Shown: positions 275-60,998 of the stretch, in pieces
Position numbering within the stretch: position 1 is the first letter of the stretch
How the letters are laid out: every line of letters starts with the position of its first letter
Assembly: GCF_006345805.1 (NCBI RefSeq)
Contig: NW_021832001.1
Span: 1 to 63,139 of the forward strand
Length of the DNA stretch: 63,139 bases
Direction: 5' to 3'
DNA from: Octopus sinensis
Taxonomy: Eukaryota
Notes under the pieces: generated by a model
The model's database searches: none
The model's input: only the letters and a program-made list of their open reading frames with translations
Told to the model about the DNA's origin: nothing
Position numbers and translations under genes: made by a program

Positions 275-327
<53 letters not shown>

Positions 328-408
328 AATCCAAACGGGAAACAAAAAAACAACAACAATGGAACAATTACAGTATTATTCTTAATAGGCGCTCAGGAAA
401 GGAAGCAG

Positions 409-475
<67 letters not shown>

Positions 476-7483: not shown

Positions 7484-8317
7484 CTATTTCTTTATTACCC
7501 ACAAGGGGACAAACAAGGACAGACATAGGATTAAGTCGATTACATCAACCCCAGTGCGTAACTGGTACTTATTTTATCGACCCCAAAAGGATGAAAGGCA
7601 AAGTCGACCTCGGCGGAATTTGAACTCACAACGTAACGCAGACGAAATACCTATTTCTTTATTACCCACAAGGGGCTAAACACAGAGGGGGACAAACAGG
7701 ACAGACATAGGTATTAAGTCGATTACATCGACCCCAGTGCGTAACTGGTACTTAATTCATCGACCCCGAAGGATGAAAGGCAAAGTCGACCTCGGCGGAA
7801 TTGAACTCACAACGTAACGCAGACGAAATACCTATTTCTATTTCTTTATTACCCACAAGGGGCTAAACCACAGAGGGGGAAAAAAAGGGACAAACATAGG
7901 TATTAAGTCGATTACATGACCCCAGTGCGTAACTGGCACTTAATTTATCGACCCCGAAAGGATGAAAGGCAAAGTCGACCTCAGCGGAATTTGAACTCAC
8001 AACGTAACGCAGACGAAATACCGCTAAGCATTTCGCCCGGCGTGCTAACGTTTCTGCCAGCTCGCCGCCTTATTTCAATCATACCTATTTCTTTATTACC
8101 CACAAGGGGCTAAACATAGAGGGGACAAACAAGGACAGACATAGGTATTAAGTCGATTACATCGACCCCAGTGCGTAACTGGTACTTAATTTATCGACCC
8201 CGAAAGGATGAAAGGCAAAGTCGACCTCGGCGGAATTTGAACTCACAACGTAACGGCAGACGAAATACCGCTAAGCATTTCGCCCAGCGTGCTAACGTTT
8301 CTGCCAGCTCGCCGCCT
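7484..8317 (-). mobile_element. SINE family C trimer plus monomer
   Basis: Four ~180-230-bp units; the target sequence caatcatacct occurs three times (~7475, ~8076, ~8323). Confidence 0.9.
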
Positions 8318-8720
8318 TATTTCAATCATACCTGGTTCATCTTTGCCTTTGAGAGTCCAAGAGTAGGGGAAATGTACAATACCGCTAGTACCGCAATGGA
8401 ATAAATTAACTACACTTCGCTCATAAACTGTGTGGCCTTGGAAAATAAGTATAATAACGAAAGCTGTAGATTGATAGAACCGCAGAACGTCATGCAGGAT
8501 GTTTTGAGCGTGGTGATAGCTCTACATTTCGAATTCAAATCTGGTTGAAGTCGAGTACTTTGATTGTCATCCTTTCGTGGATAATCAAAATAAGTGTCAT
8601 CGAAGTCGGTATAATCATGAAATAGCGATATCAAAGGAGTCAAATGTATCTAGGTTATTCGTATCATTTTTGTGAATCAAAAGCTATCAAAAATGTTCAG
8701 ACTGACATATAGTTTTGTTT

Positions 8721-14170: not shown

Positions 14171-16245
14171 CCTTTCTTTTCTGGCCACAAAGGCCGAACA
14201 CAAAAATATTTAGGGACAATACATAACAAGGTACCAGTGGGGTTTAAAACGGAAAACGCGTAAACAATAAAAAACAAAGAGTTAACAAAAATTTAGCAAA
14301 ATTCCCCAATGGGGGTGGGGTGGAGTTTCACTCAAGGTCAACCAGGGCCAACCAGGGCACGCCAGGTAGGCACCCATCTTCCCCTCAACTGCTCCGGTTA
14401 CAGACGAACATTCAGAGCCATTTTCATAACATTCACCCACTTTTCAACAAAATTACTGGGGAGGCATTACTTCCTCTCTACCCTCACATTCCTTTTCAAG
14501 TGGAATTTGAAAAAGTAGATGAGGGGTCGGCCAATGAGGAAAATGTCTGTCGTCAGTCCTTTCAGCCTCGTCCACCACACTACCACCTTCGCTATAGCCA
14601 CCAGACAGAGGAAAACTGCCTTTCCCTCCCAGCCAAAAGAAGGCGGCGGGGAGATCCTCACAATGGACTCGGATGATAAACGGATTCGTCATACACGTGA
14701 CAGCAGCTGTTCAACAAAGCTCCACAAGTTAGTAATGCACGGACACTGGACAAATGCATTCAGGACGGTTCCATCACCCTGCACTCATCTTGGAAAGGTC
14801 CGTCTGACAGCACTACCGTGTCTGTAGAGCTTTTCCCGAACCAGCAAAGCTGCCAGTAGTACTGAGAGGCCAGAGATTTCTGGAAGTTATCCATAGGCCC
14901 TGGACCGAAAGTCCTCCGGAAAGGACCAGTTAGTTGATCTCTCCCGACACCCAGAATTTTCCCGAGTACGGCCTCGCTCTTTCCCTTCACTAATTCCCTA
15001 TAGAACTCCATAGTGGAACTTCCACCAACCTCGTTGCCCAACTAGCAGAAAGATATGAGCGCTTGCCGACACTCCAGGTGCTAAGTGCCTTTTATTGGTC
15101 TACGCTTGACCTAGGACTGTAGCTCCATCAATGAGACGAGCTGTGGAAAGCCTTGTTTGACGAACGATAACCACACCTGCCCACCTTTAAGGAAACGCTG
15201 GAGATGTCACAGCTTCAGCGCATGTTTGCGCATCATTAGCCACGGCATGCCCAGTCCTCCACTGTTGACGAGCAGAACACGTCCCTTCAATAGAAAGTGG
15301 AAGAGCAAGTGGAGAAAGGGACGACGGTCAGACTTCAGTAGATGACGGAAGCGATGTATGCATTCGCCACCTCCGCTCGATCCTTCAGGGACAGCTTCCT
15401 CTCTGCCCACTTCTGGGTGAGACTGGCTACTTTGCTTGTCACCTCCCCCCAGTTCTTGTTCACCTGGAGGTCTGGGCTAAACCAGATCCCGAGCAATTTA
15501 ACCGGTCCTTCCGCCCAGCTCCCTAAAAAGCTGTCGGGTAGCATAGACTTACCTCTCTAGGTGCCGAGCTGCAGGAGCACCGACTTTTGGTTTATCTTTG
15601 CTCCTATCACCACTTCGTACTCCCTTAGTGCAGTGTCGACCACCTCGATTTCCGTGATGTCCGGCACTATTACGGTGACGTCATCCGCATAAGCCGATTC
15701 AAAACTACCGCATTTTAGATCACGCAGGATGCCCCTCAAAACATCCATATTCCACAGCAATGGCTTAAGAGCCAGTACGTACAGAAGGGGCGAGAGTGGG
15801 CATCCTTGACGGACCGAACGAGCAATACTAAGCGATTCTGATAGGTGGCTGGTTACTTTGACCACCGAATGGATGTCGTTGTACATTGCTGTGATCTAGC
15901 CTCTGAAAACGGGACCGAAACCTGCTGCCGCGAGAACAGCCTCCAAGTATTGGTGGTCGTCCCTATCCAAATTGATCAGGGCCTCACCCATGCCAAGTTC
16001 TTTACACACCCTCTCAATTATGTAGCGCGTGAGATGGAGGTTGTTGTGGATAGTTCTATTTGGAATAGCGCGTTTTTGCGTATCACCAACCAACTTATCG
16101 ATGACAAGCGCCAACCTCTTGGCTAACCCTTTGACCGAAATCTTATAATCTTCGTTCATCAGAGTTATAGGCCTAAAATTATTAATTTTGTCCCCCTTGT
16201 TCGGGTGTTTCCCCAACAGCACCACCACTCTACGGCTCACAGCGC
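14171..16245 (-). mobile_element. 5'-truncated Tx1/L1-clade LINE, degenerate RT and C-terminus
   Basis: Minus-strand ORF pieces FRPITLMNEDYKI, SVRQGCPLSPLLY, AYADDVTV, LLGIWF, with stops and frameshifts. The 3' end abuts (ATT)n. Confidence 0.9.
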
Positions 16246-16329
16246 GTAGAAAAAATCTAAGGGGAGGTAATTGGTGATTGTTATTATTCAGGGCAGAGGA
16301 AGTAATAGTACAGTTTTTGGGTGGTTACA

Positions 16330-16763
16330 AATTTTGGGTGTGATAAATTTACATAAACTCATGAGTTAAATTAGTAAGATGTATAACTATGTATGTGGGG
16401 GGAAATTCTTTCTTATGGTGAGAGGTATAAAGGTCATATCTAAAGCTACGGATTTAAATCTGTCCAGAGTTACCACTCTCCAGTATTTGCCGTTGATAAC
16501 AGCTAAAGAGCCAGAAAGCCGCGTATGAGAATCAATTAGGGGGTGATAATGGCGGTCAGATATGGCGTCTTTATACCTCTTCAATAAGTGAAAATTTTTC
16601 TCTCCGTTTTTTGTTTCTCTCTCGCCATTTTTTCCTCTCATCCCTTTCTGTCGAATCGTAGGTTCGAAATATCAAAGTCGACTCTATTTTTCCTAAGCGT
16701 CAGATTAATACACCTGCTTGTTCCCTCACTGTCTTTGTCTTTTGTTTTCTGTACATCTGAACC
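16330..16763. mobile_element. Penelope-associated fragment: possible inverted ORF remnant plus degenerate hammerhead tail (+ strand, 16644-16677)
   Basis: cttt-CTGTCGA...GAAATATC-aaag followed by the ttcctaagcg box shared with the 21.5-kb and 22.9-kb elements. Minus-strand peptide YHP...INGKYWRVV..D loosely resembles the Penelope RT C-terminal region. Confidence 0.5.
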
Positions 16764-16937: not shown

Positions 16938-19900
16938 GGTTCTACCTGAAAGGTGCCTGCCGGCATGGAGAGGAAGGTGCAGGCTGCCGCTTTGCACATC
17001 CGGGACCCTGCCACAGAAACCAACCACCGAAAGGAATGGGATGGACCACGCATCACCGGCCCCAAAACGGAGGTACGCAGATGTGGTGCGTACCACAAAC
17101 CACCAACATGTTGTTGAAAGGGCAGCTGCTGAGCAGGAATCTTTTTGTGCATGGCACAAAAGATTGTACAGCAGCTAACCTGCTCCATCAGGCTCAGGTC
17201 GCAGATGGAACTGCCCACGTTTCACAAGACCGCCACAGCAGATGGACCCAGGGTGGACACCACCGGCAACAGCATACACCTCACCTCGATGCTCCTACTG
17301 AACATCAGAGGACTACTAACACACAGTAACAGGACAAAAGTCCCGTTCCTGAGAGACTTTGTCGCATGCAATCAAGCCTTATGCATAGCACTCACAGAAA
17401 CGCATCTGAAACCGACATAGCAGATGCGGAATTACACCTACCACAGTATGTTGTACTACGGACCGACAGGAAAAAAGAAGTCATGGAGGAGTTGCTATGT
17501 ACATCCGTGGGGACCTCACACCCCAGGTCCTTTTGTCATACTCAAACTCGGTGTGTGACACACTAATTGTCACATAAGGCAACTTGATGTAGTTGTGTGT
17601 GGCTACATATCGCCCTCCAGATGCCCCAAGTCATATGGGCAAGTTTGAGGACTGCCTTTTAAAAATAAAGTTCTAACCACATTAGAACAACACATAAGTG
17701 TACTTCTCATGGGAGACTTCAAGCTACCGAATGTCAGATGGCCCGAGGGCCTTTCTCTCCCAGGAATGACAAGATGTGAACGAGGACAGGCGAGGTCCCT
17801 CCTGAACCTCACCAACACCCTGTACATGGAGCAAGTAATACTCCAACCAACCAGAGCGGGTACACACTGGATCTCTGCTTCACAAATAATATGGATCTCA
17901 TCCATAAGTGAAAGTGACAAGACACACCGACACTACTCTCGGATCACAACATGGTAGAGCTGACCATGTACGGCCAAAAGAGAGCACGGACATGCAGCCT
18001 ACAAGAACCCTCAGAATCTTTCCAGCTTGAACTTCAATAAGGCAAACTGGAAACAAATGAGAAAGAGATCCTCAAACAAAACTGGCCTGAATGTCTCTCC
18101 TCGCCGGACATCGACATTACTTACTTCAACAATTCATGTCTGTAATGCAAGCCATATGCTACAAATGTGTCCCAGAGAGAAAGGCCACTGTACACACAAG
18201 AACAATCCCCAGAGAGAGAAAAATTTTAATGAGACGGGGCGCACAAAAATCTCAAATCGCCTAAACAACAAATTGAAAGCAGTGAAAAGTCCCGCCTGAA
18301 AATAAAACTGTTGGAAATTGAAAATTGTCTGCAACTCTCCCATGAAAGGAAAGAGCAGACAAAGAAGCCTGGGCTATAGACAAATATAAAACTAACCCCA
18401 GAGCTTTCTACAGGTATGCCAAAGAAACAGCTACGGTGCACTGTAGGATAGGGCCACTCCTTGAAAAGGATGGCACACTCACAGGAAAACCAATGAGGGT
18501 AAGTGAAATACTGAATGAACAATTCAAGAGTGTTTTCACTCCACCCCTTGGGCATTTCCAAATCAGCAATCCAACTGACATTTTACCACTGCAGATATAG
18601 AATCAGAGGCGGCGACGTTAAATTACATCGATATAAAGGAAGACGATGTAATAAAGGCTATAGATGAAATGAAAATAGACTCAGCTATTGGCCCCGATGG
18701 ATTCCCGGCAATCCTCCTAAAAGTATGTAAGAGAGTCTTAGCAAGACCACTGCAGTTCCTCTTTCAGAGCTTCCTTGCAGCTGGCAAACTTCCAAGAAAA
18801 CTGAAGGAAGGTAAAATATGCCCTATTCATAAAGGAGGTAGCAGAGCGAGGCCAAGAACTACAGACCTATCTCTCTGACCTCACACATCAGCAGGTCATG
18901 GAACGAATAGTCAGAAGGAAACTAATCACCTTCCTTGAAGAAAATGACTTGCTGCCTGAACGCCCAACATGGTTTCCGACCAGGAAGAAGCTGCTTAACT
19001 CAGCTCCTGCAGCACACTATGACTGGGTGCTGAAACAACTGCTCAACCACTCAAATGTGGAAGTCATATATCTCGACTTCGCAAGGCCTTCGATAAAGTC
19101 GATCATGGAATGACGTGATTTTGTCACAACTGCGTGAGCTTGGCATAGTTGAAAACTAGGAGAATGGCTTCACGACTTTCTGAAGAATAGAAGTCAGGTG
19201 GTAGTAGCCAATGGGCCACTTCCATTAACACGCAAATAGTGAGCGGTGTTTCCACAGGGCACTGTTTTGGGACCACTACTGTTCATAATGGCCCTCTCAG
19301 ACATGCCCTCAGCCACGCGGAGAGCCACGATCACAAGTTATGCCGATGATACAAAGTTTCACAGGCAATACAGAACCCTGAAGACACTAGCACCTGCAAT
19401 GAAGCTGGACGAAATATACAAGTGGGGCTGAAAAGAATAGCATGCAGTTCAATGCTGAAAAGTTCAAGCTTTATACTATCAGCATGCAAAACTGAATGCA
19501 ATAACCCAAGGAATACACTGGACCGGAGGGATTGCAATCCCAGAGGCACAATCAGTGCGTGACCTGGGTATTCACATGAGTGATGACGCGACCTTCATGT
19601 ACTGTTGCTAAACTGACAATGAAATGCAGACGGCTGGCTGGATGGATTCTTAGAACCTTTAGAACAAGAGAACAAGAAACCATGATGGTCCTCTGGAGAC
19701 ACTTGTCCTAGTCACTTTGACTATTGCTCTCAGCTATGGTCACCATCCAGTGTCAAGTTGATCACAGAACTTGAGGCGATCCAACGAAGCTACACGAAAG
19801 AAATAGCCTCTATGCAGAATGTAAGCTACTGGGAAAGACTCAAGAGATTAAAATTATATTCCCTGGAGCGTAGGCGGGAAAAGATATGCCATAATATACA

Positions 19901-20338
19901 TCTGGAAGATCCTGGAGGGAAGTGTCCTGAACTTTGCATCGAGAGTTACGCAAACGCCAGAACTGGGCGCCACTGCGTGGTGCCTAGGACTCCAAACTTG
20001 CCATCAAGATGTAGGGACAAGATTCTGTGATAGCCTGGGCTTCCGAGGCCCACAGCTCTTCAATATCCTCCCGATGAACCTGAGAGACCTGCATGGGGTG
20101 GATACAGATGTCTTTAAAATGGAGCTGGATCTCTCTCCTGTCAGGTGTCCAGATGAACCAACTTCACGCAGGAGGGGCAGATGAGGGCAGCTGCATCGAA
20201 CTCTCTCTGCACCAAATAAATAGCAGTTGCTAGAAAGCCTCCATGAAGTGAAACCAAGTAGCAACACCAAATGGCGGTGCCCCAGCATGGCCACAGCTCA
20301 TAAGCTGAAACTGGAATCAATCAATCAATCAATCAATC
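16937..20338 (+). mobile_element. CR1/L2-group LINE: ORF1 remnant, APE endonuclease and RT, frameshifted; (AATC)n tail
   Basis: LLLNIRGL..ALTETHL, MGDFKLP, GPDGFP, YLDFA, PQGTVLGPLLF, SYADDTK, SYWERLKRLKLYSLERRR; flanked by (TA)n on both sides. Confidence 0.92.
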
Positions 20339-20532: not shown

Positions 20533-20715
20533 AAAGTTAATCCAAACATGAAAACACAAAGAGAAAACACAGCAACGCGAAGATGTGGAACAAGTATAGT
20601 ATTATTGGACGCTCAGGAAAGAAGGAAAGAATGAGGGTTTAACGTTTCGAGCGCTGCTCTTCGTCGGAAACATAGGAAAGGGAAGGATCCAAAGAAAGGA
20701 AGACGGAGGAGAATT
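20533..20715 (-). mobile_element. Hammerhead-bearing TA-associated element, subfamily H1 (core mutated to CCGACGA)
   Basis: Reverse-complement copy of 21442-21648; motif at 20637-20671. Confidence 0.8.
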
Positions 20716-21294
20716 ACCAATTGGTTGATAACTGATGAAGAATTAGGGACCTTCTGTGTTTGTCTCCCGTCCGGTTTTACGCTTAGTATACGTTATGTCG
20801 TTTGTTTGTTTACCATACATATTTTCATATATATATATATCATTGCAATATAGAGTTTCCAGACTGGGTACAAGACCACAAAACGTTTTGCATTGACATT
20901 GAACACACGATTATATCAATCCCAGTACTTGACTAGTACTTCAGTACTTTATTTTATTTATTCTGTAAGGAAGAGCAAAGTTGATTTCAGTGAAATTTTA
21001 ATCACAGAACGAAAAGGGCCGTAACCAAAGATCATAGATTTTGTCTAACGCTAAAACACAAAACAATACAATGAATCACACGTCACATGAATATTGTAAA
21101 GGTTGGACAATCCCCACTTTTTTTTTTACATAACACGGGGCAAAGATTCTGTTGCATATTTAATATTTTATTGATTTATATAAGAAGGATATTGATAATT
21201 GAAGTTTTCAAGAGATCAATCATTGATTTAGTGAATGTATGACGAAAACAGTGATAAGGGAGTGTTTGTAACTCTCTCTCTCTCTCTCTCTATA

Positions 21295-21336
<42 letters not shown>

Positions 21337-21386
21337 GCATATATATATATATAGACGCATGTATATATATAATATAGACGCATATA

Positions 21387-21430
<44 letters not shown>

Positions 21431-21441
21431 GTATATATATA

Positions 21442-21648
21442 ATGTGACAGCGTGTGTACCGTTGGCGATTTTTTCTCCTCTCTTCCCTTCTTTGGATCTT
21501 CCTTTTCCTATGTTTCTGACGAAGAGCTCCGCTCGAAACGTTAAACCCATTCTTTCCTTCCTTCCTGAGCATCCAATAATACTATATTTGTTCCACGTCC
21601 TCGCGTTGTTGTGTTTTCTCTTTGTGTTTTCATGTTGGATTAACATTA
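21442..21648 (+). mobile_element. Hammerhead-bearing TA-flanked element, subfamily H1
   Basis: ~205 bp between (TA)n tracts; second copy at 20533-20715. Confidence 0.8.
21512..21546 (+). ncRNA. Minimal type I hammerhead ribozyme motif (Penelope type)
   Basis: GUUU-CUGACGA-A-GAGC(ucc)GCUC-GAAACGU-U-AAAC: intact catalytic core, stems I and II, palindromic ACGU in place of helix III. Confidence 0.8.
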
Positions 21649-21668
21649 TATACATATATATATATTTG

Positions 21669-21725
<57 letters not shown>

Positions 21726-21997
21726 GTATTTATATATATATGTATATACATACACACATATATACACCATCATACGACCACCCTACGTCTTTAATTTATT
21801 CCAGAGGACATGGCTTATGTCGAAATAACCATTATTTAAATGTATATACATGTAATGATTAAAACCTTGGCTACCCTGGGTTGTTTTTATGTTAGCCTAC
21901 GAATTCGGTAAGTTGTTAAGCAAGCCTAGTTTTATTTTATATTAGAAAGAAATAATTTCAAATACTGTTCTGTTGCCTACCTGGTGGCTGACGTCGG

Positions 21998-22183
21998 TGC
22001 TGGCAGAAACGTTAGCACGCCGGGCGAAATGCGTAGCCGTATTTCGTCTGTCGTTACGCTGTGTTCAAATTCCGCCGAGGTCGACTTTGCTTTTCATCCT
22101 TTCGGGATGGAATCGACTTAAAACCTATGTCTGTCCTTGTTTGTCCCATCTATGTTTAGCCCCTTGTGGGTAATAAAGAAATA
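21998..22183 (+). mobile_element. SINE family C copy with internal deletion
   Basis: Head gctggcagaaacgttagcacg, B box ttcaaattcc, tail ttgtgggtaataaagaaatag. Confidence 0.85.
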
Positions 22184-22199
22184 GTTACTAGTTGAGGCT

Positions 22200-22460
22200 G
22201 GTGTAGGAGGAGGAGGAGATTACATACTAGATGTCGATGGTTGGGGATCATCAGCTGACTCCTGTTGTGTTGGTATAGATCGTTGTGCGAACTTGTCTAA
22301 AGTTCCTTGAATTATCTTTTTCTTCTTCTCTTCAAGGATTAGGTAATAAGATGCATGCAATAGTATCTTGACAACCCACCATTATTTTTACAAAAGGTTG
22401 TGCATTGGGATCCATTTCCTCAAGTAAAGTAAAACATCTATCTAAACGGGAAAAAAGCCT
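22200..22460 (-). pseudogene. pogo/Tigger transposase C-terminal fragment
   Basis: Manual minus-strand translation with one frameshift: DPNAQPFVKI...IAC.YYLILEEKKKKIIQGTLDKF...DDPQPSTS, resembling the Tigger C-terminal pattern. Confidence 0.55.
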
Positions 22461-22879
22461 CTTGCATTTTCTTCAACGTAAAACGACGAGGTACGGGATC
22501 AATGATGCATACTTTATTTTAACATTAATTTTAATATACTATACAGATTATGACTCTATTGCTTTTGAATGCATTTCCCGGAGGCGAATACGAACGTAAC
22601 CATTCGATACAACCCGGAACAAACAGTACAGTATAATATGAATGTTACTGTTGTTGTGCTAGCCGGCGTAAATTAATACAGTATTTAATAGTAATTAATA
22701 GTATTTAATAGTTATTCAATATTTTAGAAAGACCGACGTATCTTCGGAAATCACGTAAGTCGAAACGACTTAACCAGTGGTATATGTGTGTGTGTGTGTA
22801 TACTTGGAAGAGGATGCGTGGCGTTCAATCATATTATAATATAAATAATATATGTGTGTGTGTGTGTGTGTGCGTGTGT

Positions 22880-23081
22880 GTAACGCCATGTTAGATCGTT
22901 AGCTCCTACACGCATTTTTTTCTCTCCTTGTTTCTTTTCTGTGTATCTTTCTGTCGAAGAGCGTAGGCTCGAAACGTAAAAGACTTGTTTTATTTCTATT
23001 CCTGAGCGCCATACTAATACATTTGTTTGTTTGTACTCCACCTGCCTTCGTCTTTTGTTTATTTTCGTAAACCTTCCCGTT
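22880..23081 (+). mobile_element. Hammerhead-bearing element, subfamily H2 (motif 22946-22983)
   Basis: UCUUU-CUGUCGA-A-GAGC(guag)GCUC-GAAACGU-A-AAAGA; lies between (TG)n and (TA)n; second copy at 34727-34930. Confidence 0.75.
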
Positions 23082-23693: not shown

Positions 23694-24955
23694 TCAGGCT
23701 GAGTAAAAAGTAAGCAACGTTTTGAACCAAGAAGAATTCGTACCGGAGTTCTGAATTATTTTTTTAAACATGTTTTTTGCAATTGTCTGATAATACAGAC
23801 ATAGACTTGCTTAAATGCATCGATAAATTAACATTGACATTTTTTTCACCCTTGTTACAATCATCTGAAATGGAACTGTCAAAGCACAATATTCGAGCAA
23901 TTTTGCTAATCAACTTCAAAAAAAGGACGTAAAGCAGCTGAAACTGCTCGCGATATCAACGAAACGTTTGATGAGGAAATGTCCAGTGAGTGGTCAGCTC
24001 GAAAATGGTTCAAACGATTTCTTAGTGGAGACCTGAGCCTTGAAGATCGTGATCGTAGTGGACGTCGACCTGTCATCGATGACGGTCAATTAAAGACCGT
24101 CATTGAGAAAGATCCACGTAAAACCACTCGAGAACTAGCAAAAGAATTTCAAGTTAGTCAGGAAACTGCCTGCAACCATTTGCTTGCAATCGGAAAATCA
24201 AAAGAGCTGGACAAATGGGTACCACACGTTTTGAGTGAAAATCAGAAAATGCGCAGATATGAAATTTGCTCGTCGCGTCTTATCCGTAACCAGACCGATC
24301 CATTTCTCGACAGTATTGTAACATGCAATGAAAAGTGGATTCTGTACAATAATAAAAAAAAAAAGTCTTCGAAGTGGTTGGACCAAAATGAAACACCGGA
24401 AACCTTCTCTAAACCCGAGCTCTTCAAAAAGAAGGATATAGTGACTGTTTGGTGTTGTACTGCTGGACTCATCCACTATAACTTCTTAAAACCCGGAATA
24501 ACCATTACAGCAAAAACATATTGTTGTGAAATTGCCAATATGAACGAAAAACTGCTACTCCTCCGTTCCGGACCGGTCAACAGAAGAGGGCCAAACATTT
24601 TCCATGACAATGCTCGATCACACGTTTCACTAATGACGTTCCAGAAGTTAAGGGAACTTGGCTACGAAGTCCTTCCCCACCCAGCTTATTCCCCAGACTA
24701 TCACTTTTTCTAGCAACTTGATGGTTTCCTGCTAGAGGAGGAGTTCTAAAATCAAACCTATGCTGAAAGTCCGTTCAAAGAGTTCATCAGCTCCAGAACT
24801 CCAAATTTTTATGTTACCAGAATAAACAAACTTGTAACACGTTGGAAAAAATGCGTTGATTGTAACGGTACTTACTTTGATGAATGAAATTTCCGCATTG
24901 CTGAAAAACTTGTGAATGATTTCATGTTTCAAACGTTGCTTACTGTATACTCGAC

Positions 24956-34657: not shown

Positions 34658-34728
<71 letters not shown>

Positions 34729-35092
34729 CGGGAAGCTTTATGAAAATAAACAAAAGACGAAGGCAGGTGGAGTACAAACAAACAATTGTATTAGTATGGC
34801 GCTCAGGAATAGAAATAAAACAAGTCTTTTACGTTTCGAGCCTACGCTCTTCAACAAAAAGATACACAGAAAAGAAACACGGAGAGAAACAAGGAGAGAA
34901 AAAAAATGCGTGCAGAAGCTAGGGAATCAACATATATATATATATATAAATATATACGACGGGCTTCTTTCAGTTTCCGTCTACCAAATCCACTCACAAG
35001 GTGTTGGTCGGCCGGAGGCTATAGTAGAAGACACTTGCCCAAGGTGCCACGCAGTGGATCTGAACCCGGAACCATGTGGCTGGTAAACAAGC
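34451..35092 (-). mobile_element. SINE family A carrying an H2 element in its TA run
   Basis: Colinear SINE halves flank 34727-34930. Confidence 0.88.
34727..34930 (-). mobile_element. Subfamily H2 element with decayed hammerhead (34825-34862)
   Basis: Reverse complement of 22880-23081; core reads UUGUUGA. Confidence 0.8.
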
Positions 35093-36263: not shown

Positions 36264-37334
36264 AGCGGCGAGCTGGCAGAAACGTTAGCACGCCGGGCGA
36301 AATGCGTAGCCGTATTTTGTCTGCCGCTACGTTCTGGGTTCAAATTCCGTCGAGGTCGACTTTGCTTTTCATCCTTTCGGGGTCGATTAAATAAGTACCA
36401 GCTACGCACTGGGGTCGATATAATCGACTTAATCCGTTTGTCTGTCCTTGTTTGTCCTCTCTGTGTTTAGCCCCTTGTGGGTAGTAAAGAAATAGGTATT
36501 TTGTCTGCCGCTACGTTCTGGGTTCAAATTCAGTCGAGGTCGACTTTGCCTTTCATCCTTTCGGGGTCGATTAAATAAGTACCAGTTACGCACTGGGGTC
36601 GATATAATCGACTTAATCCGTTTGTCTGTCCTTGTTTGTTCTCTCTGTGTTTAGCCCTTTGTGGGTAGTAAAGAAATAGGTATTTTGTCTGCCGCTACGT
36701 TCTGGGTTCAAATTCGGTCGAGGTCGACTTTGCCTTTCATCCTTTCGGGGTCGATAAATTAAGTACCAGTTACGCACTGGGGTCGATATAATCGACTTAA
36801 TCCGTTTGTCTGTCCTTGTTGGTCCTCTCTGTGTTTAGCCCCTTGTCTGCCGCTACGTTCTGGGTTCAAATTCGGTCGAGGTCGACTTTGCCTTTCATCC
36901 TTTCGGGGTCGATAAATTAAGTACCAGTTACGCACTGGGGTCGATATAATCGACTTAATCCGTTTGTCTGTCCTTGTTGTCCTCTCTGTGTTTAGCCCCT
37001 TGTCTGCCGCTACGTTCTGGTTCAAATTCGGTCGAGGTCGACTTTGCCTTTCATCCTTTCGGGGTCGATAAATTAAGTACCAGTTACGCACTGGGGTCGA
37101 TATAATCGACTTAATCCGTTTGTCTGTCCTTGTTGGTCCTCTCTGTGTTTAGCCCCTTGTCTGCCGCTACGTTCTGGGTTCAAATTCCGTCGAGGTCGAC
37201 TTTGCCTTTCATCCTTTCGGGGTCGATAAATTAAGTACCAGTTGCGCACTGGGGTCGATGTAATCGACTTAATCCCTTTGGCTATTCTTGTTTGTCCCCT
37301 CTACGTTTAGCCCCTTGTGGGCAATAAAGAAATA
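36264..37334 (+). mobile_element. SINE family C hexamer within one TSD
   Basis: One full head plus five headless units; 17-bp TSD aggagatataggtagat (36244-36260 and 37335-37351). Confidence 0.92.
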
Positions 37335-37627: not shown

Positions 37628-38761
37628 ATTTCATATTTCTTTATTGCCCAGACAAACAAGGACAGACAAAGGGATTAAGTCGATTACATCGACCCCAGTG
37701 CGTAACTGGTACTTAATTTATCGACCCCGAATGGATGAAAGACAAAGTCGACCTCGGCGGAATTTGAACTCAGAACAAAAAGACAGACGAAATACCTATT
37801 TCTTTACTACCCACAAGGGACTAAACACAGAGAAGACAAACAAGGACAGATAAATGGATTAAGTCGATTACATCGACCCCAGTGGGTAACTGGTACTTAA
37901 TTTATCGACCCCTAAAGGATGAAGGCAAAGTCGACCTCGGCGGAATTTGAACTCAGAACGGAAAGATAGACGAAATACCTATTTCTTTACTACTCACAGG
38001 GGGCTAAACACAGAGAGGACAAACAAGGGCAGATAAACGTATTAAGTCAATTACATCGACTCCAGTGCGTAACTGGTACTTAATTTATCGTCCCCGAAAG
38101 GATGAAGGCAAAGTCGACCTCGGCGGAATTTGAACTTGGAACGTAACGGCAGACAAAATACGTATTTCTTTACTACCCACAAGGGGCTAAACACAGAGAA
38201 GACAAACAAGGACAGATAAATGGATTAAGCCAATTACATCAACCCCAGTGCGTAACTGGTACTTAATTTATCGACCCCGAACGGATGAAAGGCAAAGTCG
38301 ACCACGGCGGAATTTGAACTCAGAACAAAAAGACAGACGAAATACCTATTTCTTTACTACTCACAAGGGGCTAAACACAGAGAAGACAAACAAGGACAGA
38401 TAAATGGATTAAGTCGATTACATCGACCCCAGTGCGTAACTGGTACTTAATTTATCGACCCCGAAAGGATGAAGGCAAAGTCGACCTCGGCGGAATTTGA
38501 ACTCAGAACGGAAAGACAGACGAAATACCTATTTCTTTACTACCCACAAGGGACTAAACACAGAGAAGACAAACAAGGACAGATAAACGGATTAAGTCGA
38601 TTACATCGACTCCAGTGCGTAACTGGTACTTAATTTATCGACCCCGAAAGGATGAAGGCAAAGTCGACCTCGGCGGAATTTGAACTCGGAAGGTAACGGC
38701 AGGCGAAATACGGCTACGCATTTCGCCCGGCGTGCTAACGTTTCTGCCAGCTCGCCGCCTT
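37628..38761 (-). mobile_element. SINE family C hexamer within one TSD
   Basis: Six ~183-bp units; 15-bp TSD atcaaaagtattctt (37613-37627 and 38762-38776). Confidence 0.92.
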
Positions 38762-47489: not shown

Positions 47490-48800
47490 TCAAAGAAAGC
47501 AGACGTGCAGTGGGGGTGTCAAAGGAATGTCAGAGGAAGCAGACAAATAGTGGAGTTGCTAAAGGAAGTAGAAATGCAGTGGAGTTGTTAAAGGAAACGG
47601 AAATGCAGTGGAGTTGCCAAAAGTAGCAGAAATTCCAAAGGAAGCTGAAATGCAGTGGAATTGCTAAAAATACCAGAAACGCAGTGGAGTCGCTAAAATA
47701 CCAGAAACGCAGTGGAGTTGCTAAAGGAAACAGAAATGCAGTGGAATTACTTACAGAAGTAGAAATGCAGTGGAGTTGCTAAAGGATGTAGAAGTGCAGT
47801 GAAGTTGTCAAAGGAAGCAGAAATGCAGTGGGGTTGCTAGAGGAAGCAGAAATGCAGTGGAGTTGCCAAAGGAAACAGAAATGCGGTGGAATTGCTAAAG
47901 GAAGCAGAAATGCAGTGGGTTTGTTAAAGGAAGCAGAAATGCAGTGGGTTTGCTAAAGGAAGCAGAAATGCAGTGGAGTAGCCAAAGGAGACAAAAATGC
48001 GGTGGAATTGCTAAAGGAAGCAGAAATGCAGTGGAGTTGTTAAAGGAAGCAGAAATGCAGTAGGGTTGCTAAAGGAAGCAGAAATGCAGTGGAGTTGTTA
48101 AAGGAAGCAGAAATGCAGTAGGGTTGCTAAAGGAAGCAGAAATGCTGTGGAGTTGCCAAAGGAGACAGAAATGCGGTGGAATTGCTAAAGGAAGCAGAAA
48201 TGCAGTGGAGTTGCTAAAGGAAGCAGAAATGCTGTGGAGTTGTTAAAGGAAGCAGAAATGCAGTGGAGTTGTTAAAGGAAGCAGAAATTCAGTAGGGTTG
48301 CTAAAGGAAGCAGAAATGCAGTGGAGTTGTTAAAGGAAGCAGAAATGCAGTGGAGTTGTTAAAGGAAGCAGAAATTCAGTAGGGTTGCTAAAGGAAGCAG
48401 AAATGCAGTGGGGTTGCTAAAGGAAGCAGAAATGCTGTGGAGTTGTTAAAGGAAGCAGAAATGCAGTGGAGTTGTTAAAGGAAGCAGAAATGCAGTAGGG
48501 TTGCTAAAGGAAGCAGAAATGCTGTGGAGTTGCCAAAGGAGACAGAAATGCGGTGGAATTGCTAAAGGAAGCAGAAATGCAGTGGAGTGTTAAAGGAAGC
48601 AGAAATGCAGTGGAGTTGCCAAAGGAGACAGAAATGTGGTGGAATTGCTAAAGGAAGCAGAAATGCAGTGGGGTTGTTAAAGGAAGCAGAAATGCAGTGG
48701 AGTTGCCAAAGGAGACAGAAATGTGGTGGAATTGCTAAAGGAAGCAGAAATGCAGTGGGGTTGTTAAAGGAAGCAGAAATGCAGTGGAATTCCTGAAGGA
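47490..48800. repeat. 29-bp tandem satellite, ~45 copies, consensus AAAGGAAGCAGAAATGCAGTGGAGTTGCT
   Basis: Head-to-tail units with no spacers; 87-bp higher-order repeat at the right end. Confidence 0.95.
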
Positions 48801-49990
48801 AACAGTGTTAAAAAATGAAAAAGTAGAAATCAACAGAGAAAGGTAGCAGAGATGCATTTGAGACTTTAAAAGGAAACAGAGATAAAGTGGAATTATCAAA
48901 AGGAAGCTAAATGTCAGTGGAAAAGTTAAAGGTAGGGAAATTTCAGAAAGTTCTAAAATGAGAAAGATAAAAAAAAAAAACAGAATGGAATTAGTTTTTG
49001 GAAAGTGAAGAAAAAGGACGAAAAAGACGAATGAAATAAGATTTGAGAAGAGACGTGAAAAAAAGCCCCCAAAAATGTATGAGAATTCGAAAGGTAAAAA
49101 AGGAAGAAGTGCAGCAAAATGGATGAGGACTTATGAGGAAATGAAGTTGAAGAGGAAGAATAAAGTTGATGATGATGAGGATGATGATGATGATGATGAG
49201 AAGGAGGAGGAGGAGGAGGAAGGGGAGGTGGAGGAGGCGGAGTGTGGCGGCGGCGGCGGTGGTGGCGTGATAATGATGATGATGATGAGGAGGAGGAGGT
49301 GGTGGTGGAGGAATGTGGTGACGGCGGTGGTGGTGATGATGATGATAAGGAGGAAGACGACAGTTATGATGATGATGATGATGATGTTAGTGGTGATGGT
49401 CATGATGGTGATGGGCAGTGTTGGTAAATATGATGGTTAGAGTGTAGTGATGCAGAGTGTAGTAGTAGTGCAAGTGATGGTGGAGTTGGTGGTGATAATG
49501 ATGAAGATGATGACGATGACGACGACGACGATAATGATCGTGGGAGAAAGCCAGAAAAGAAGACGACTTTACCTTTCATCCTTTCTGAGTCGCTAAAATA
49601 GGTACCAGTTGAATACTGGAGTCAATGTAATCGACTCATCCCTTTCGCCGAAATTGCTGGCTTTGTGTCAAAATTTAAAACCATTATTATTTCCTCTTTA
49701 TCACAGGTTTTTTTGGAGCTCCTGGAGTCTTGCATGCGTATCGGGCTTACTACCTGCAGCCTACGGTACCATGTTATTAGTTCTTTTCAGCTATCTAATA
49801 CTTTCCTGATTATTCTGGCCGTGCCAAGGAGGCAAACCGTTTGTAACAGTTCTACTGGACACTCTATTCCTGTTTCCTTTATATTCCTCTTGATGCCTTC
49901 TGATACTGTTCCCAAGGACCCACCAAAAATGGCGCTTCATTTTCCATAGCCGGGCTATTTCGTACTTAAGAGGGTTGTATCTATCTTTCC

Positions 49991-50565: not shown

Positions 50566-51486
50566 TATAACGGGTGTTGATGAAATATCATGATTATTGG
50601 TGTTGCAGATGTGCAAGATGAAAGAACAGTGATCGAAGTGGTAAACAAATATTTAGTACCGTTACTTTGTATATAGCCAAACCACGACGAATTGATAATT
50701 CGTAAAGCATGCGAGGTAAAGAGAGATATCGTTGATTTTCCTTGTATAGTTTGTGTTTGTGTTCTCGTCATTGTGTAGTTGTAAATCACAGATAGAGATA
50801 GGATAATGTTGTAGAGAAGAGAAAGTGAGATAGTGAAAGTGAGGGTGGTGGGACGAAACAACTGCTTCGTTAGTGAGTTACCATAGTTGTCTCTCTGTGC
50901 CTTTTCCTTCAGAGATGGCGTTCGTTTAGCCGGTCAACCGACACGGTTCTCACTTACTGACTTTGGCTTACGGTGTTCTTGTATTTATAACTATGCAAAA
51001 CTAGCTAAAAAATGGTTATATTGCAGAGAACAAAAATATTCTCCACTGCATACAAGAGGTTAGAAGGGTCAAGTGGCAAAGACATAAATCGGCTTGGCAA
51101 AGCCATATGTTAAATTTAACGGATCTTTTCTTTTTGAAGGCCAGATTTTCCTAGTTAACTAAACAATTTGAAACTTCGTATACTGGTAGAATGTGTCAAA
51201 AGAAAACATTATTGTAAACAAAATGGAAAACAAAATTGTAATTCGTAACTTAAACATAGTTTAATTTTAAGAATTGTTTACAATAATGTTTTCTTTTGAC
51301 ACATTCTACCAGTATACGAAGTTTCAAATTGTTTAGTTAACTAGGAAAATCTGGCCTTCAAAATGAAAAGATCCAATTTAACTACTGTCAACCATTGTTT
51401 CTCTGTGAGAAAATGCTGTTGAAATATTATGGGAAATTTGCCTATTCAAGTTCGAATCTACTTTATGCCTAAATGAAGTCACTACA
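50566..51486. mobile_element. Probable solo LTR inserted in the R4/Dong zinc knuckle
   Basis: Clean ~920-bp interruption with a 4-bp direct repeat GTTT. Ends TATAA...CTACA, i.e. TG..CA with one change. Confidence 0.5.
51121..51374. mobile_element. Palindromic MITE with GG termini and 8-bp TSD (Merlin-like, tentative)
   Basis: 101-bp inverted arms with one mismatch; TSD aatttaac (51113-51120 and 51375-51382). Confidence 0.88.
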
Positions 51487-55506: not shown

Positions 55507-56497
55507 GAATTAATGTACGTGTAAACCAACTCATAACCACTTTCTTCAGAGCTCTAGCATTGTCCATGGAAACGAGCGATAGTGTACTATAAGGACATGC
55601 AGTTCAATTAATGAATTCAAAACATTATCGATAATGATCCGGAAAAATGATAATCATCACCAAAGAACTTCAAGTTTCGGAGTGGACTATCAGAACTGCG
55701 GTGCACAAGGGCATTCGGTAGAAATCGTGCGAACTGAAGAGAGGTCAGTTAATGTATGAAAAGACACAGGAAAGCCGTTTGATCAGTATCAAGCAGTTAC
55801 TTAACAAGTCTAATATCCTTTAAGAACATGACATGCTTTGATTCTTCTCCGATGTGGAAAACTTCGACCAAGACCAAAGGTCATATAGGAGAAATGACTG
55901 ATGGTAATGTTTAGTTTATCCTGATGTCCCTATGTAGGGAATTAATAATAATGATACACCCCTCCCACGTGACGAATGGAAAGTAAAGAGAAGTACATGG
56001 AGTACGGGAGAACGTAGGAGGAGGTCTGAGACAGTCGTGACTTTACTGGTTTTACTAAGTATACTGTATACTGAAGTGGGTGTTATAATAATCCGACATT
56101 TTAAGGATTACAACAGTAAGTCTCAAGCAATTGTAATGGTTGTACTAATACAGGATCATAGACACATGCACAAGGCAAGATATCTTAAGGCTTCTAACGT
56201 GACTCTCTACTAGTCGTTCATATAATAATCCTGAATCATGTTATGTTATGACAAAGTCGTGTATTTACTGGTAGTGACGACACATTATAAGCGAAAAAAC
56301 ATGGAAATATGTCGGTAAGCAGAAGTTAATTAAATCTAAAAAGGTAGCACATGGTGGTACGGGAAAAAGATTATATTTTTCGGTGAATTCGTATGTAGTG
56401 CAATATTTCAAGAACAAACGAAAAAGACAAAGATGTATGTATCAAAAGAATCACTTGGCACAGAGTGGATTGAAATATAGATTGAAATGTGTGGAAA

Positions 56498-57806
56498 TAT
56501 ACCCGAGGAAGAACATATGGCATTGTGGAGGTGCGTTTCACGACGGAGGATGAAGCGATTAAGAATTCAACAGAAGCAATACGAACAGAGGAATGGGTGT
56601 TTTTGCCGTCCTACTGTGGCAAACGTGTTGCCAGAGTAAGAGTTGGCAGAGTGCCACCAGAGATAAAAGAAACATGGCTGATGGCAGCCATCATGTACAA
56701 TATGGAGGAGGAGACCAAGATTCTCAAGGCGACAAGAAACAAAAAGGGTGAACTATTAAGGATATGGCATAGAAATGGCCATTCAAGCTAGTATAGATGG
56801 CCTCAATAGAATCGCGGAAGAAATAGTTCTGCTTCAGGACGTAAGGCTGCGAGTGGTGTTGGAGGGTAGGCCGCCTATATGCTATGTATGTGGAGAAAAG
56901 GGCCACATAAAGAGAGAACAACAGATGGAACAGACGGAGAAGCAAGAGAGTGCAGACCAAGAGGTACAAGTCGAGGTAAAGGAGACAAGAATGGAAGAAG
57001 GATTTACGGTAGTAAAAAAAAGAAAGAGAAGTGATAGAGTAAGCTCTCCGCCAGAAGGGGCAGAAAAAGAAGAAAGAAAATGTAGAGAAAGAAATTATGA
57101 AGGAAGTCAGAAGGAAAGAATATAAAATGGTGGTTGACAAGGAGATCGAAAGAAACTTGAAAAGGAGCTCGAAGAGGAGTTGCAGAAGGAGGAGACAGCA
57201 GCAAAAACATTGATTGTACGAGTAGAGGAATAGGATTCAGGAGAACAATTATACGAGGGTGAAATAGAGAGATTATTTAGAGTGGAAAGAGAAAAGGTAC
57301 CAGCAGTGGAGCAGGAAAAGAGAAAGCAAGTAAGAAAACCCCCAAAATATCGATGGAATTTTGTGACATATGCGAAAAACAAGGAAACAGAACGGAAAAT
57401 AAAGAAATTTAAGTTTATCATAAGGGTGAAGCTTCCCACAGACGTGTATTCAGAAAATGTGAAGGCCATTGTGATCGACAGGGAGAAATACAACAGGTTG
57501 AGAGATATGTGTGGAGAGGGAATTGATCCGCCAGGAGTAGCGGTGGATTTCGATGAATTGCCACCGGTAGTGGAACTGAAAGATCTTGAACCTTTTATGA
57601 AATACTAAAAAAGGGAAAAAGTAAATAAAATTCTTTATCGGAAAAAAAGTTTAAAAAAAAGTAAAATGGGACTGCATGAGGAGTGGGGCCCATGCAGCCA
57701 TTTCATTTTCCTTATATAACATCTTCATTTTCATTCGTTTTATGTTTTTTGTCCCTACTGTAATGTTCGGTCTGTGTTATGGCCGTAGTGCCAAATAAAG
57801 AAAAGA
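56498..57806 (+). mobile_element. ORF1-only (HAL1-like) non-LTR element, copy 1, 5'-truncated and frameshifted
   Basis: Gag-like ORF with CYVCGEKGH knuckle and FTVVKKRKR, stop at ~57607, short UTR, Tx1-like 3' module, no ORF2. Confidence 0.7.
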
Positions 57807-57829
57807 GTACGTTGTAAGCGGTGAGACAT

Positions 57830-59600
57830 ATTTGCATCAATTGGAGTTAATTTTGTCGTGTTTTCTCGATTGCTGTTAGACGTAAGTCACTTTGTTAAAT
57901 ATTTGTTGAAGGTCTCCCCTCGTGGGTGTACCCAAGATTATTGATTGTAACTGTTGAAATTGCTGTTCTTGTTATTGTTGAATTGTTGTTCTTTTTCCCA
58001 TTGCGGGAAAGATGGAGAAAGTGCCAGTAGGAGGCCACAGTTATGCGGCAGCAACTGGTAGAGAAATGGAGGTTGAAGCTTTGGAGGTCCGCGAAGTGAA
58101 AGTTGAGCCGAAGGAGATGAAAGAATGTGAGAAATTATTGAAAAGGGAGGGAAACACGTTGAGACTAACGCCACCTGAGGAACTCACAAGTAGTATAACC
58201 AAGAGAATAGTGATTTTTAAAACACTGAAGGTGTCAAGTAGGAAGATCAAAATAGCAACAACTGAGGCTATTGAGAATTGTTTGAAGGATATTAAGAAAT
58301 TCACAACGTTCATCACACGTGGAAGGAGGTATGGAAAAGTGGAGGTGCGTTTCGCGATGGAGGACGAAGTGGTTAAGCACTCCACGGAAGCCATAAGAAC
58401 GGAAGAATGGGTACTTTTGCCGACGTACTATGGCAAGCGTGTTGCCAGGGTGAGAGTTGGCAAAGTACCCCCAGAGATAAAGGAAACATGGCTGATGGCG
58501 GCCATAATATTTGACATGAAGGGAGATGCCAAGATACTCAAGGCAACGAAAACCAAAAGGTTGAATTATTGGAGGTATGGCATAGAGATGGCCATACAAG
58601 CGAGTTTGGAAGACCTCAACAGAATTGCAGAAGAAATAGTTCTGCACGAGGATATAAGGCTAAGAGTGGTTGGTGGTGGTGGGTAGGCCTCTCATATGCT
58701 ACTTGTGTGGAGAAAAAGGGCCATATGAAGGCGACGTGCCCCCAGAAAGAAAATGAACAACAGATGGAACAGACTGTGGCGCAGGAGAGTGTAGACTAAG
58801 TGGTACACTTCGATGTAAAGGAGGCAAGAACAGAGGAGGAATTCACGGTGGTCAAAAAGAGAAAGAGAAGTGAAAGAGTAAGCTCTCTGCCAGAGAGGCA
58901 GAAACAGAAAAAAGAAGTGGTTAAGGAGATGGCGAAAGAGGTTGTGAAGGAAGTCAGAAGAGAGGAAGGGGAGAAGATGGTTGATAAGGAGATTGAAAAG
59001 GAGCTTGAAGAGGAGCTCGAGGAGGGGTTTCAGAAGGCGGAGACAGCAGCAAGGACACTGGTTATACCAGTGGAGGAAAATAATTTAGGCGAACAACTGT
59101 ATGAGGGTGAAATGGCGAAACTATTCAGAGTGGAGGAGGAAAAAGAAAAAGTACCAGGAGTGGCGCAAGAAAAGGAAAAACAAGCAAGGAAGGCGAAAAA
59201 ATACCGATGGAATTTGGTGACATACACTAAAAATAAAGAAACTGAACGGAAAATAATGAAATTTAAGTCCATTATAAGGGTTAAGTTGTCCACAGATGTG
59301 TATTCGGAGAACGTGAGGGCCATTGTGGTCGACAAGGAGAGGTACAACAGGCCGAAAAATATGTGTGGAAGAGGCATTGATACGGCATTGATAGTTGCGG
59401 TGGAATTTGATGAATTGCTACCAGTGGTTGAATTGAAAGATCTTGAACCTTTCATGAGATATTAAAAAAGGAAAAAAAGTAAAATCGCTTTATGTAAGAA
59501 AAAAAAAAGTAAAATTGATTTATTTTAAAAAAGAAAACGATGATAAAGGAAAAAAACAAAGGAATAATGAACGATTGGAAACGAGTGCGAGGAATATTCA
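57830..59600 (+). mobile_element. ORF1-only (HAL1-like) element, copy 2 (ORF 58012-59465, disrupted)
   Basis: N-terminal SYAAA; CYLCGEK/GHMKATC knuckle at 58697-58739 with a 1-nt frameshift; same C-terminus ELKDLEPFM(K/R)Y* as copy 1. Confidence 0.7.
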
Positions 59601-59619: not shown

Positions 59620-60998
59620 ACAATAAGCGTAAGTTAGTGCCAACGGTGGTTCCAGAAATTCCGAGCCGGAAACTAGAGCCTAGAAGACGAGCCTCGTCCT
59701 GGAAGATCTGTAGAGCTCGACGAGAACATCCTGCAAACCCTGCTGGAATAAAATCCCCAGGTAACTATTGAGGAACCAGCAAAGGAGCTTGGATTTGGTC
59801 ATTCAACCATTCATCGAAACATGCGTGCTATCGGAAAAGTCAGCAGATTGGGTCAATGGGTTTCTCACAAACTTTCCGAGTCTAATTGGATGGAAGCACT
59901 CCGTCGGTTACGACGATGAGGGTTCCGGTTGATCCGAATCAACGGAACAGCCTGCTCGTGAAATTAACGTGTAAGTGGCTGAGCACTCCACAGACACGTG
60001 TACCCTTAGCGCAGTTCTTGGGGATATTCAGCGTGACACAGAGAGTGACAAGGCCGGCCCTTTGAAATACAGGTACAACAGAAACAGGAAGTAAGAGTGA
60101 GAGAATGTTGTGGTGAAAGAGTACAGCAGGGATCACCACCATCTCCTGCCGGAGTCTCGTGGAGCTTTAGGTGTTTTCGCTCAATTAACACTCACAACGC
60201 CCGGTCTGGGAATCGAAACCGCGATCCTACGACCGCGAGTCCGCTGCCCTAACCACTGGGCCATTGCGCCTCCACTCCGAGTCTAATTACACGCAGAGTG
60301 AATGTGTGTTCTTTGGTGTCACGTCTCACAAATGAACCTTTTCTGGACCGAATAGTAGTGACTGGTGATGAGAAATGAGTTCTCTATAAAATGCCAAGCG
60401 CCGAAGACAGTGGGTAGGGAAAGGAGAAACACTGGCACCTCAGGCTAAAGAACATAAGGTGTTGTTATCTGTTTGGTGGGATATGAAAGGTTTAGTCCAC
60501 TTTGAACTTTTAAACCCAAACCAAACGGTAACAAAGGAGATCTACTGCGATCATCTTGAACGGCTTAAGTCAGCGTTAGAAGGAAAAGGACCATCTTTGC
60601 TTTCAATACGAAAGGTGTTCTTCTATCAGGATAATGCTCGGCCACATACAGCGAGGATGACATTCCAAAGGCTGAAGCAGTTTGAATGGGAAACGATGCC
60701 CCACACAGCATATTCGCCGGACATTGCCCCATCTGATTATCATTTAGTCCGCAGTCTTCAAAATCATTTGAACAGAAAAAAAAATGAATTCTTAGATGAC
60801 GTCAGAACAGTAGTAGAGGAGTACTCTTCGTTATAGACAAGTGAATTTTGGAAGAGGAGGCCTTGCAAGTCTAGCAATTAGATAGAAGAGTATTGAAGAA
60901 AATGAAGAAGAGTATATTTTAGATTAAAAAAGAACTTTGTTTATCTTAATTTTGAAACATAAAGGAAAAACTGCATTTTTTTATGGGACGACGCAATA
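59620..60998 (+). mobile_element. 5'-truncated mariner transposon, transposase pseudogene
   Basis: QRWFQKFRAGN*SLEDEPRPGR, WVSHKL, VTGDEK*, QDNARPH, YSPDIAPSDYHL; TIR-like right end gcatttttttatgggacgacgcaata. Confidence 0.9.
59888..60275 (-). mobile_element. SINE family B inserted in the mariner
   Basis: TSD tccgagtctaatt (59875-59887 and 60276-60288). Confidence 0.93.

Follow-up and report, generated by a model that had tools for sequence, protein, structure and literature searches.

The 63,139-nt contig NW_021832001.1 of Octopus sinensis (contig C8472 of the 2.72-Gb genome G000, to which all genome counts refer; hereafter the window) carries several short repeats with minimal hammerhead ribozyme motifs, and here we present an analysis of what these repeats are. 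Judged from their sequence relations, they are the 3' ends, that is, the pseudo-long terminal repeat (pLTR) ends, of Penelope-like elements (PLEs), and not a free-standing ribozyme element. In our best explanation, to which we give a probability of about 0.8, two sister families of endonuclease (EN)-bearing PLEs left these 3' ends, likely by reverse transcription that begins at nicked (TA)n and usually stops after about 200 bases, and the hammerhead is predicted to be weak and likely dispensable for copying. The repeats are very abundant, and as a repeat family the finding is ordinary; the part worth following is the lineage-wide A6U and U4C hammerhead cores in successful elements.

We begin with the repeats of the C/D type (Table 1). 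Followed upstream, long C copies pass a region rich in pyrimidines and CA and then reach a GIY-YIG endonuclease and a reverse transcriptase (RT) (L088/L141), and copy D is 87-96% identical to the ends of EN-bearing loci. With this endonuclease alone as query, a search yielded 15,308 candidates; 150 were scored and 30 loci fetched. In 28 of these 30 loci (one partial) a D end lies downstream on the same strand. Among the loci with long frames, all ten have the D end and six have two. In these six the direct repeats measure 480-1390 nt, are spaced by 4273-4508 nt, and flank RT-EN frames of 835-1009 aa. The C/D pLTRs on the whole have fixed 3' ends, variable 5' ends and partial tandems. The frame of L207 is 1009 aa from stop to stop and matches RVT_1 with 32 bits (cut-off 29.6); its endonuclease motifs (IIY..YIG, CxxC and two His) are visible, and its linker CSRPRCRTC at residue 774 reads as CX2-5CxxC before the endonuclease. 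By the linker definition in PMC8557442, the C/D parent would be of the Neptune/Nematis type, a label that covers the linker type alone. An earlier note, made from the letters of the window, had suggested solo pLTR-like ends and autonomous PLEs sharing the terminus, and both are found; the separate class of non-coding ribozyme retroelements that it also proposed is unnecessary, because the units continue into PLE 3' untranslated regions and open reading frames (ORFs).

The second type, A/B, is linked to PLEs by fewer loci. Its long copies share the CA-rich upstream region, up to 1.7 kb. At L204, two A/B repeats flank an internally deleted RT-EN frame with 53-61% protein identity to L207, and at L134 an A/B end joins an N-terminal frame piece. 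On the one locus L204, the A/B ends would belong to a sister family of the C/D-type PLE. In the window, tblastn detects no remnant of a PLE frame, and the RT pieces at 15.6-20.2 kb are assigned to other retroelements. Another candidate was a PLE family with 780-aa frames, which gives most matches of the Pfam GIY-YIG search; it was rejected as parent since its ends differ and the B and C copies near its frames look like separate insertions. In its own right, this is a second abundant PLE family (L093:1-7091, or G000:C1:207473000-207480100, and L091-L102), having 780-aa RT-EN frames with several intact, a 479-aa upstream frame and 1.15-kb direct repeats. The hammerhead scan is negative for this family, whose end has a CTGACGAAGGG...CCCTGAAA stretch; the loop of this stretch is too long for the scan to detect.

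In the window, five motifs and one stub had been reported, and all are located where the earlier note put them (Table 1): the pattern GAAGAGC-N3/4-GCTCGAAACGT has four matches there, against none in any of 100 dinucleotide shuffles. They had been taken as one family of about 200 bp. Copies A and B share 90% identity over 194 nt, C and D 96% over 180 nt, whereas B and C align around the motif only (74% over 86 nt). With high identity within the pairs and the B/C similarity confined to the motif, we are dealing with two well-separated main types and not with one family. All six copies A-F run straight into (TA)n, as had been described for the 3' junction. Copy A is truncated about 50 nt upstream of the core, at a head-to-head junction with another repeat end; for the latter, the fetched loci contain one further match, in L101 (80% over 111 nt), and no parent. 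Stub F begins at, or a few bases past, the predicted cut site, and longer F-type copies with the core CCGACGA are present in L114, L142 and L240. In a scan with Rfam, which is uninformative for minimal motifs, the best 150 of 189 matches include no hammerhead.

Table 1. Repeat copies, motifs and adjoining features in the window
Feature	Position	Strand	Description
Copy A	20533-20715	-	A/B type, 5'-truncated 3' end; core CCGACGA (U4C); motif 20671-20637; loop AGC; predicted site after 20641
Copy B	21442-21648	+	A/B type, 3' end of modal length, between two (TA)n tracts
Copy B hammerhead	21512-21546	+	Minimal type I; canonical core CTGACGA/CUGACGA; loop TCC; predicted cut after 21542
Copy C	22883-23081	+	3' end of C/D-type PLE; core CTGTCGA/CUGUCGA (A6U); motif 22946-22983; loop GTAG; predicted site after 22978
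Copy D	34727-34933	-	3' end of C/D-type PLE; motif 34862-34825; core TTGTTGA/UUGUUGA (A6U and C3U)
Copy E	16590-16763	+	Diverged C-like end; motif begins at 16644 and is degenerate (stem II lacks 2 nt, altered palindrome)
Stub F	322-410	-	3'-most part of a third A/B-related lineage; without ribozyme; between two (TA)n tracts
TTCCTGAGCG-type box	21562-21571 (+), 22999-23008 (+), 20610-20619 (-), 34800-34809 (-), 390-399 (-), 16690-16699 (+)		Common to all types
T-rich repeat end, then (TA)n	20716-20830	+	Carries CTGATGAAG; head-to-head fusion to copy A

Genome-wide, exact patterns with seven core positions left free match 14,560 times for the C/D type and 9,386 times for the A/B type, both numbers being lower bounds, and the reversed control patterns have 0 matches. 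We took 30 B and 30 C loci by means of the core pattern, as they follow one another on contig 1; a tract of (TA)4 or longer is present within 170 nt downstream in 24 of the B and 26 of the C loci. The best 29 other B copies are full-length units, mostly within microsatellites, and no further full B copy lies within 1.5 kb of any of these 29; one is accompanied by a 3' stub. This is in accordance with the dispersal as monomers described before. In addition, ends of different lineages often stand in series in one (TA)n tract, in the same orientation and a few hundred bases apart (L068, L083, L114, L117, L137 and L138); such serial ends all share the ACGU palindrome, so that mixed dimers are conceivable if they are co-transcribed. 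A 608-nt tandem array is seen at L159-L161 (G000:C6921:39544-43865), in which every unit combines a truncated B-type motif with an inverted A-type piece; the array is retrozyme-like in size but rearranged.

The motif of copy B is predicted to fold with stem I GUUU/AAAC, the core CUGACGA, an extra A, stem II GAGC/GCUC, GAAA, the palindrome ACGU and U17. The extra A between A9 and stem II, absent from the list in the earlier note, is a published feature of such motifs. Copies A-D all have the extra base between positions 9 and 10.1, the pair G10.1-C11.1, stem II and GAAA, while copy E fails; in A-D the palindromic 15.1-16.1 (ACGU) replaces helix III, and the NUH site and short stem I are present. 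Copy B agrees with the published consensus of metazoan PLE minimal hammerheads, also in the additional base that follows A9 and in the terminal C-G-U-H, and the kind of motif is therefore already known. The Penelope-type minimal architecture recognised earlier thus fits the consensus of PMC4209133, and the stem II loop varies among copies as had been described (Table 1).

The core, on the other hand, varies among lineages. The motif at 21512 is indeed the only one in the window with a perfect core, as had been noted: CUGANGA is found in copy B and missing in A, C, D and E. The other cores, however, are the majority state of their own lineages. For the C/D type, otherwise identical exact patterns show U6 in 12,543 copies and the canonical A6 in 128 genome-wide; for the A/B type, a hand count of the first 100 listed copies on one contig gives C4 in 71 and U4 in 29. 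The pattern with the canonical core CUGANGA has 3,311 genome matches. In both repeats of all six two-repeat, long-frame loci, position 6 is non-A. The non-canonical cores are lineage states and not decay. CpG decay was also considered for the U4/C4 mix of the B type, and two lineages are likelier, because U4 in 29 of 100 copies stands against G5A in 3 of 71 C4 copies and G8A in 7 of 100 (hand counts). Among the first 100 listed U6 copies, N7 is U in 50, A in 22, C in 16 and G in 12 (hand count), and other core changes are scattered (10 of 100 C/D copies). Position 17 is U in 92, A in 52, C in 4 and G in 1 of 149 distinct copies from the fetched loci, and at stem I pairs 1-4 the pairing is kept by 69-73 of the 75 B-type copies and by 73 of the 74 C-type ones. 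This sample is non-random, since A17 was a fixed letter in the choice of the 30 C loci, and U4 in that of many B loci.

The covariation is thin. The compensatory change in stem I proposed earlier is there, as one G-C/C-G pair in the window, but 348 of 500 shuffles also reach that count. Compensatory pairs from other stem II types in the genome (GGAC/GUCC and GGCUG/CAGCC, 259 matches, most listed ones being mutated B copies) were rejected as covariation of this family, for they belong to different families; one alternative stem II family is without stem I, and those pairs are hence left out of the count. Two groups of these types were seen besides. Older ends with a canonical core and a GGAC/GUCC-type stem II, imperfectly paired, occur at L220, L222, L231, L233 and L237. 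A repeat family with CTGATGA-A, a 5-bp GGCTG/CAGCC stem and GAAACGTT occurs at L219, L223-L225, L235, L236, L238, L242 and L246, where stem I is unpaired, the context is A-rich and a (TA)n tail is missing.

By analogy with natural variants, the A6U or U4C letter change probably weakens the cutting in most copies. Since copies with intact genes share this change, the element may not need cutting. The working ribozyme assumed in the earlier note is weakened accordingly in our account: CUGANGA is missing from the C/D consensus (A6U) and from the A/B majority (U4C), an absence that the note itself had counted against its proposal. It may still be that hammerheads with A6U or U4C are natural variants in full working order, which cut as dimers or with the PLE protein, and that the cutting matters in the life cycle, by releasing the RNA 5' end or permitting circles. 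The rest of the fold is kept (C3-G8, G10.1-C11.1, GAAA, the palindrome, stem I pairs 1-4, and position 17 hardly ever G), natural A6C and U4C hammerheads retain low activity (PMC3088659), A6C cleaves well with Mn2+ (PMC7151607), and two ends without the motif, stub F and L143, start at or 2 nt past the predicted site. Yet these are two of eight such ends, and 119 of 127 ends span the predicted site, most of them fetched via the motif or beside it; moreover, changes of A6 and U4 reduce the activity in vitro (PMC3088659), and minimal hammerheads are slow even with the canonical core. We regard fully working variants as less likely than not; the question concerns catalysis and is compatible with the identity of the repeats as PLE ends. 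A further proposal is that A6U in the autonomous family and U4C in the sister family became fixed while the stems, the palindrome, the free N7 and the non-G cut site were kept. The hammerhead would then be a protein-assisted ribozyme that tolerates such changes and has an undescribed A6U core, or else its fold would persist for RNA recognition, catalysis having been relaxed; we put this forward as doubtful.

The 5' ends of the repeats bear on how the copies arise. Those of the B copies cluster, with 24 of 30 lying 67-84 nt upstream of C3 and 15 at 75-76 nt. Those of the C copies spread over 7-101 nt, with the extent underestimated in diverged sub-lineages and three copies extending more than 280 nt. 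Upstream extensions of more than 200 nt are present in 1 of 30 B and 3 of 30 C copies. The modal B start coincides with ATGTG, which matches a TA/TG target, and with a predicted hairpin, and the tandem junctions carry on with ATATAT or TTATATA beyond the pLTR end. In the mechanism that we propose, the protein of the element would nick (TA)n and prime at an AU-rich site just beyond the pLTR end, where the ATATAT or TTATATA could pair with the nicked target. Copying would frequently halt where a hairpin is predicted, 70-85 nt upstream of the core, and the stalled end would join the target through short AT/TG matches, ATGTG or ATCG. The motif may be under selection for the hammerhead fold, its cleavage being at most slow and dimer- or protein-assisted; weak, assisted cleavage is the most to be expected because the A6 and U4 changes lower the activity and the active dimer is not the favoured fold.

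Alternatively, the 200-nt unit might be a non-autonomous derivative resembling a short interspersed nuclear element (SINE), in which a short RNA begins from a pLTR promoter, at a fixed point some 75-85 nt upstream of the core, and is copied in trans by the PLE protein. The clustered starts of the B copies picked by the core pattern and the large excess of short over long copies would agree with this, and non-autonomous PLE derivatives as well as pLTR-internal start sites have been described (PMC8557442). However, the modal B start falls on the target match and the predicted hairpin, the C-type ends are spread (partly underestimated), the upstream repeats of full elements, being 480-1390 nt long, start elsewhere, and short and long C/D copies are 87-96% identical. 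A tRNA-like head was not found by ARAGORN (0 genes in the window; decayed heads would be missed). We consider such a derivative improbable in general; for the B type, the sharp 5' end leaves a short non-autonomous transcript possible.

The comparison between the two families concerns what the motif is kept for. The 35-nt hammerhead block is 81% identical between B and C, and the 5' and 3' flanks are 54% and 61% identical, with shuffle maxima of 59%, 63% and 59% respectively; the 54% flank is at shuffle level and the 61% flank barely exceeds its maximum. This pattern of conservation suggests selection on the fold, without proof, as the changes at N7 and position 17 are few lineage-level events. 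A dead remnant under neutral drift, conserved merely through recent common ancestry, would agree with the loss of A6 in the most successful type, with the lone compensatory pair that does not rise above shuffles, and with the Naiad PLEs, which spread without canonical hammerheads and whose authors suggest that hammerheads may merely parasitise PLEs (PMC8557442). But the block is conserved between two families that resemble each other in their 5' flanks no more than shuffles do and have proteins about 40% different, and the lineage-level changes land on N7, position 17 and loop 2, so a dead remnant has little likelihood. Finally, monomers of a tandem non-LTR retrozyme moving via small circular RNAs are very improbable in spite of the monomer derivatives and PLE origin reported for retrozymes (bioRxiv 10.64898/2026.07.22.740005) and the one rearranged array with B-type motifs, because the other best B copies have no second full copy nearby, the ends lie constantly at the pLTR end, with no permutation at the cut site, and the units are joined to PLE frames. 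Contigs of four sequencing runs of presumed kind show neither joints nor piled-up ends, which weighs on neither side, as contigs could not reveal them.

Several points weigh against the explanation by truncated PLE ends with a weak hammerhead. Microsatellites are dense in the window, and the counts of (TA)n flanks come without a background control. The sharp 5' end of the B copies fits a defined short transcript equally well. Stub F and L143 begin at the predicted cut site or 2 nt after it, although two among eight ends are too few to weigh. The C-terminal GIY-YIG match of L207 in Pfam is weak and below the cut-off (E 0.0078), and the assignment thus rests on the visible motifs. L205 and L206 show no ORF match near their A/B ends, and no intact B-type frame is present among the fetched loci, so that the A/B parent is supported by the single deleted locus L204. 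The changes at N7 and position 17 are not independent copies. Moreover, the energy model predicts the active dimer well above the most stable form (-7.3 versus -24.7 kcal/mol for B, and -15.9 versus -23.6 kcal/mol for C).

Candidate roles of the hammerhead in PLEs are RNA processing, parasitism on the element, and a structure used by the protein. In this genome, elements with intact frames and more than 12,000 copies have a core change expected to slow the cutting, and they stand beside a lineage with the canonical core, giving matched natural substrates. If, as in the doubtful proposal above, the variant cores became fixed while the fold was kept, the canonical and variant lineages in one genome form a natural experiment on the purpose of the PLE hammerhead. 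Searches with CUGANGA fixed would miss most such motifs in this genome.

Other features of the window are as follows. Copy E is flanked by two broken non-LTR retroelements on opposite strands, at 14900-16324 (-) and 17300-20200 (+), with RVT_1 matches at 15560-16324 and a weak endonuclease match at 17649-17954. Tandem arrays with 158-184-nt units of a dispersed SINE-like repeat lie at 7505-8333, 36312-37318 and 37650-38711, and the repeat is also present at 13.4-14.1 kb and 22.0-22.2 kb. Fragments of a Mariner-type transposase (Transposase_1) are found at 23910-24713 and 60390-60836. Long inverted repeats, resembling miniature inverted-repeat transposable elements, occur at 51126-51369 and 61788-61969, with spurious sub-threshold Rfam matches to miRNA precursors. 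A 29-nt minisatellite occupies 47637-48805 (about 40 copies, 85% matches), and a broken, charged-rich reading frame in two adjacent copies occupies 56486-59465, with no Pfam match for the tested piece 57982-58683.

Our literature search, which had Repbase and Dfam outside its scope, found no paper on these families or on an A6U core in PLE hammerheads; the papers pairing 'hammerhead' with 'A6U' concern other RNAs in the text available. A large survey of PLE hammerhead variants was reportedly made by Lunse et al., and this survey, Repbase or Dfam may already cover the families or the cores. Penelope-like expansions in an octopus have been described (PMC13282606), where the main text, as far as available, is without the words 'hammerhead' or 'ribozyme'.

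Among known systems, the motifs can be compared with the minimal type I hammerheads in metazoan PLE pLTRs, most of which are single and probably come from truncated PLEs (PMC4209133). Shared with them are the U-rich 5' flank, the short stem I, the extra base between 9 and 10.1, G10.1-C11.1, GAAA-C-G-U-H and the lack of helix III, and copy B fits letter for letter the consensus line of the supplement. Stem II has 4 bp here versus 7-8 bp for Schistosoma, and the rows in the consulted portion of supplement file 2 all have U4 and A6 (the descriptor fixed the core), whereas A6U and U4C dominate here; that file has no Octopus or cephalopod term. With the EN-bearing PLEs of the Neptune/Nematis type (PMC8557442), the elements share the RT, the CX2-5CxxC linker, the C-terminal GIY-YIG, the partial tandems and the heavy 5' truncation, and a (TA)n bias has been proposed for the linker of such PLEs; relative to the accounts in the cited part of that paper, the sharp modal length of 200 nt and the non-canonical cores are seen here only. 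The Poseidon PLE PAc of Anolis nicks AT-rich DNA and begins reverse transcription within its RNA, beyond the pLTR end; the hammerhead requires the protein for cutting, cleavage is dispensable for insertion in vitro, and the uncut RNA is the main template (PMC11167929). A hammerhead in the pLTR region, AT-rich targets, copies of uncut RNA and a start past the pLTR end are thus common to both. The core of PAc is canonical and overlaps the start of the ORF, and its priming proceeds without homology, while at the junction here some 6 nt of AT might base-pair with a (TA)n target. Non-LTR retrozymes (PMC7229834; bioRxiv 10.64898/2026.07.22.740005) resemble the units in small size, type I hammerhead and link to pLTRs, but they are tandem repeats with a ribozyme per unit and circular RNAs, whereas the units here are dispersed ends on coding elements. 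At last, the natural core variants A6C of phage Bcep176 and U4C of a viroid (PMC3088659, PMC7151607) change the same core positions and keep low detectable activity; these are rare single cases in larger hammerheads, whereas A6U and U4C are present here in a minimal motif and in thousands of copies.

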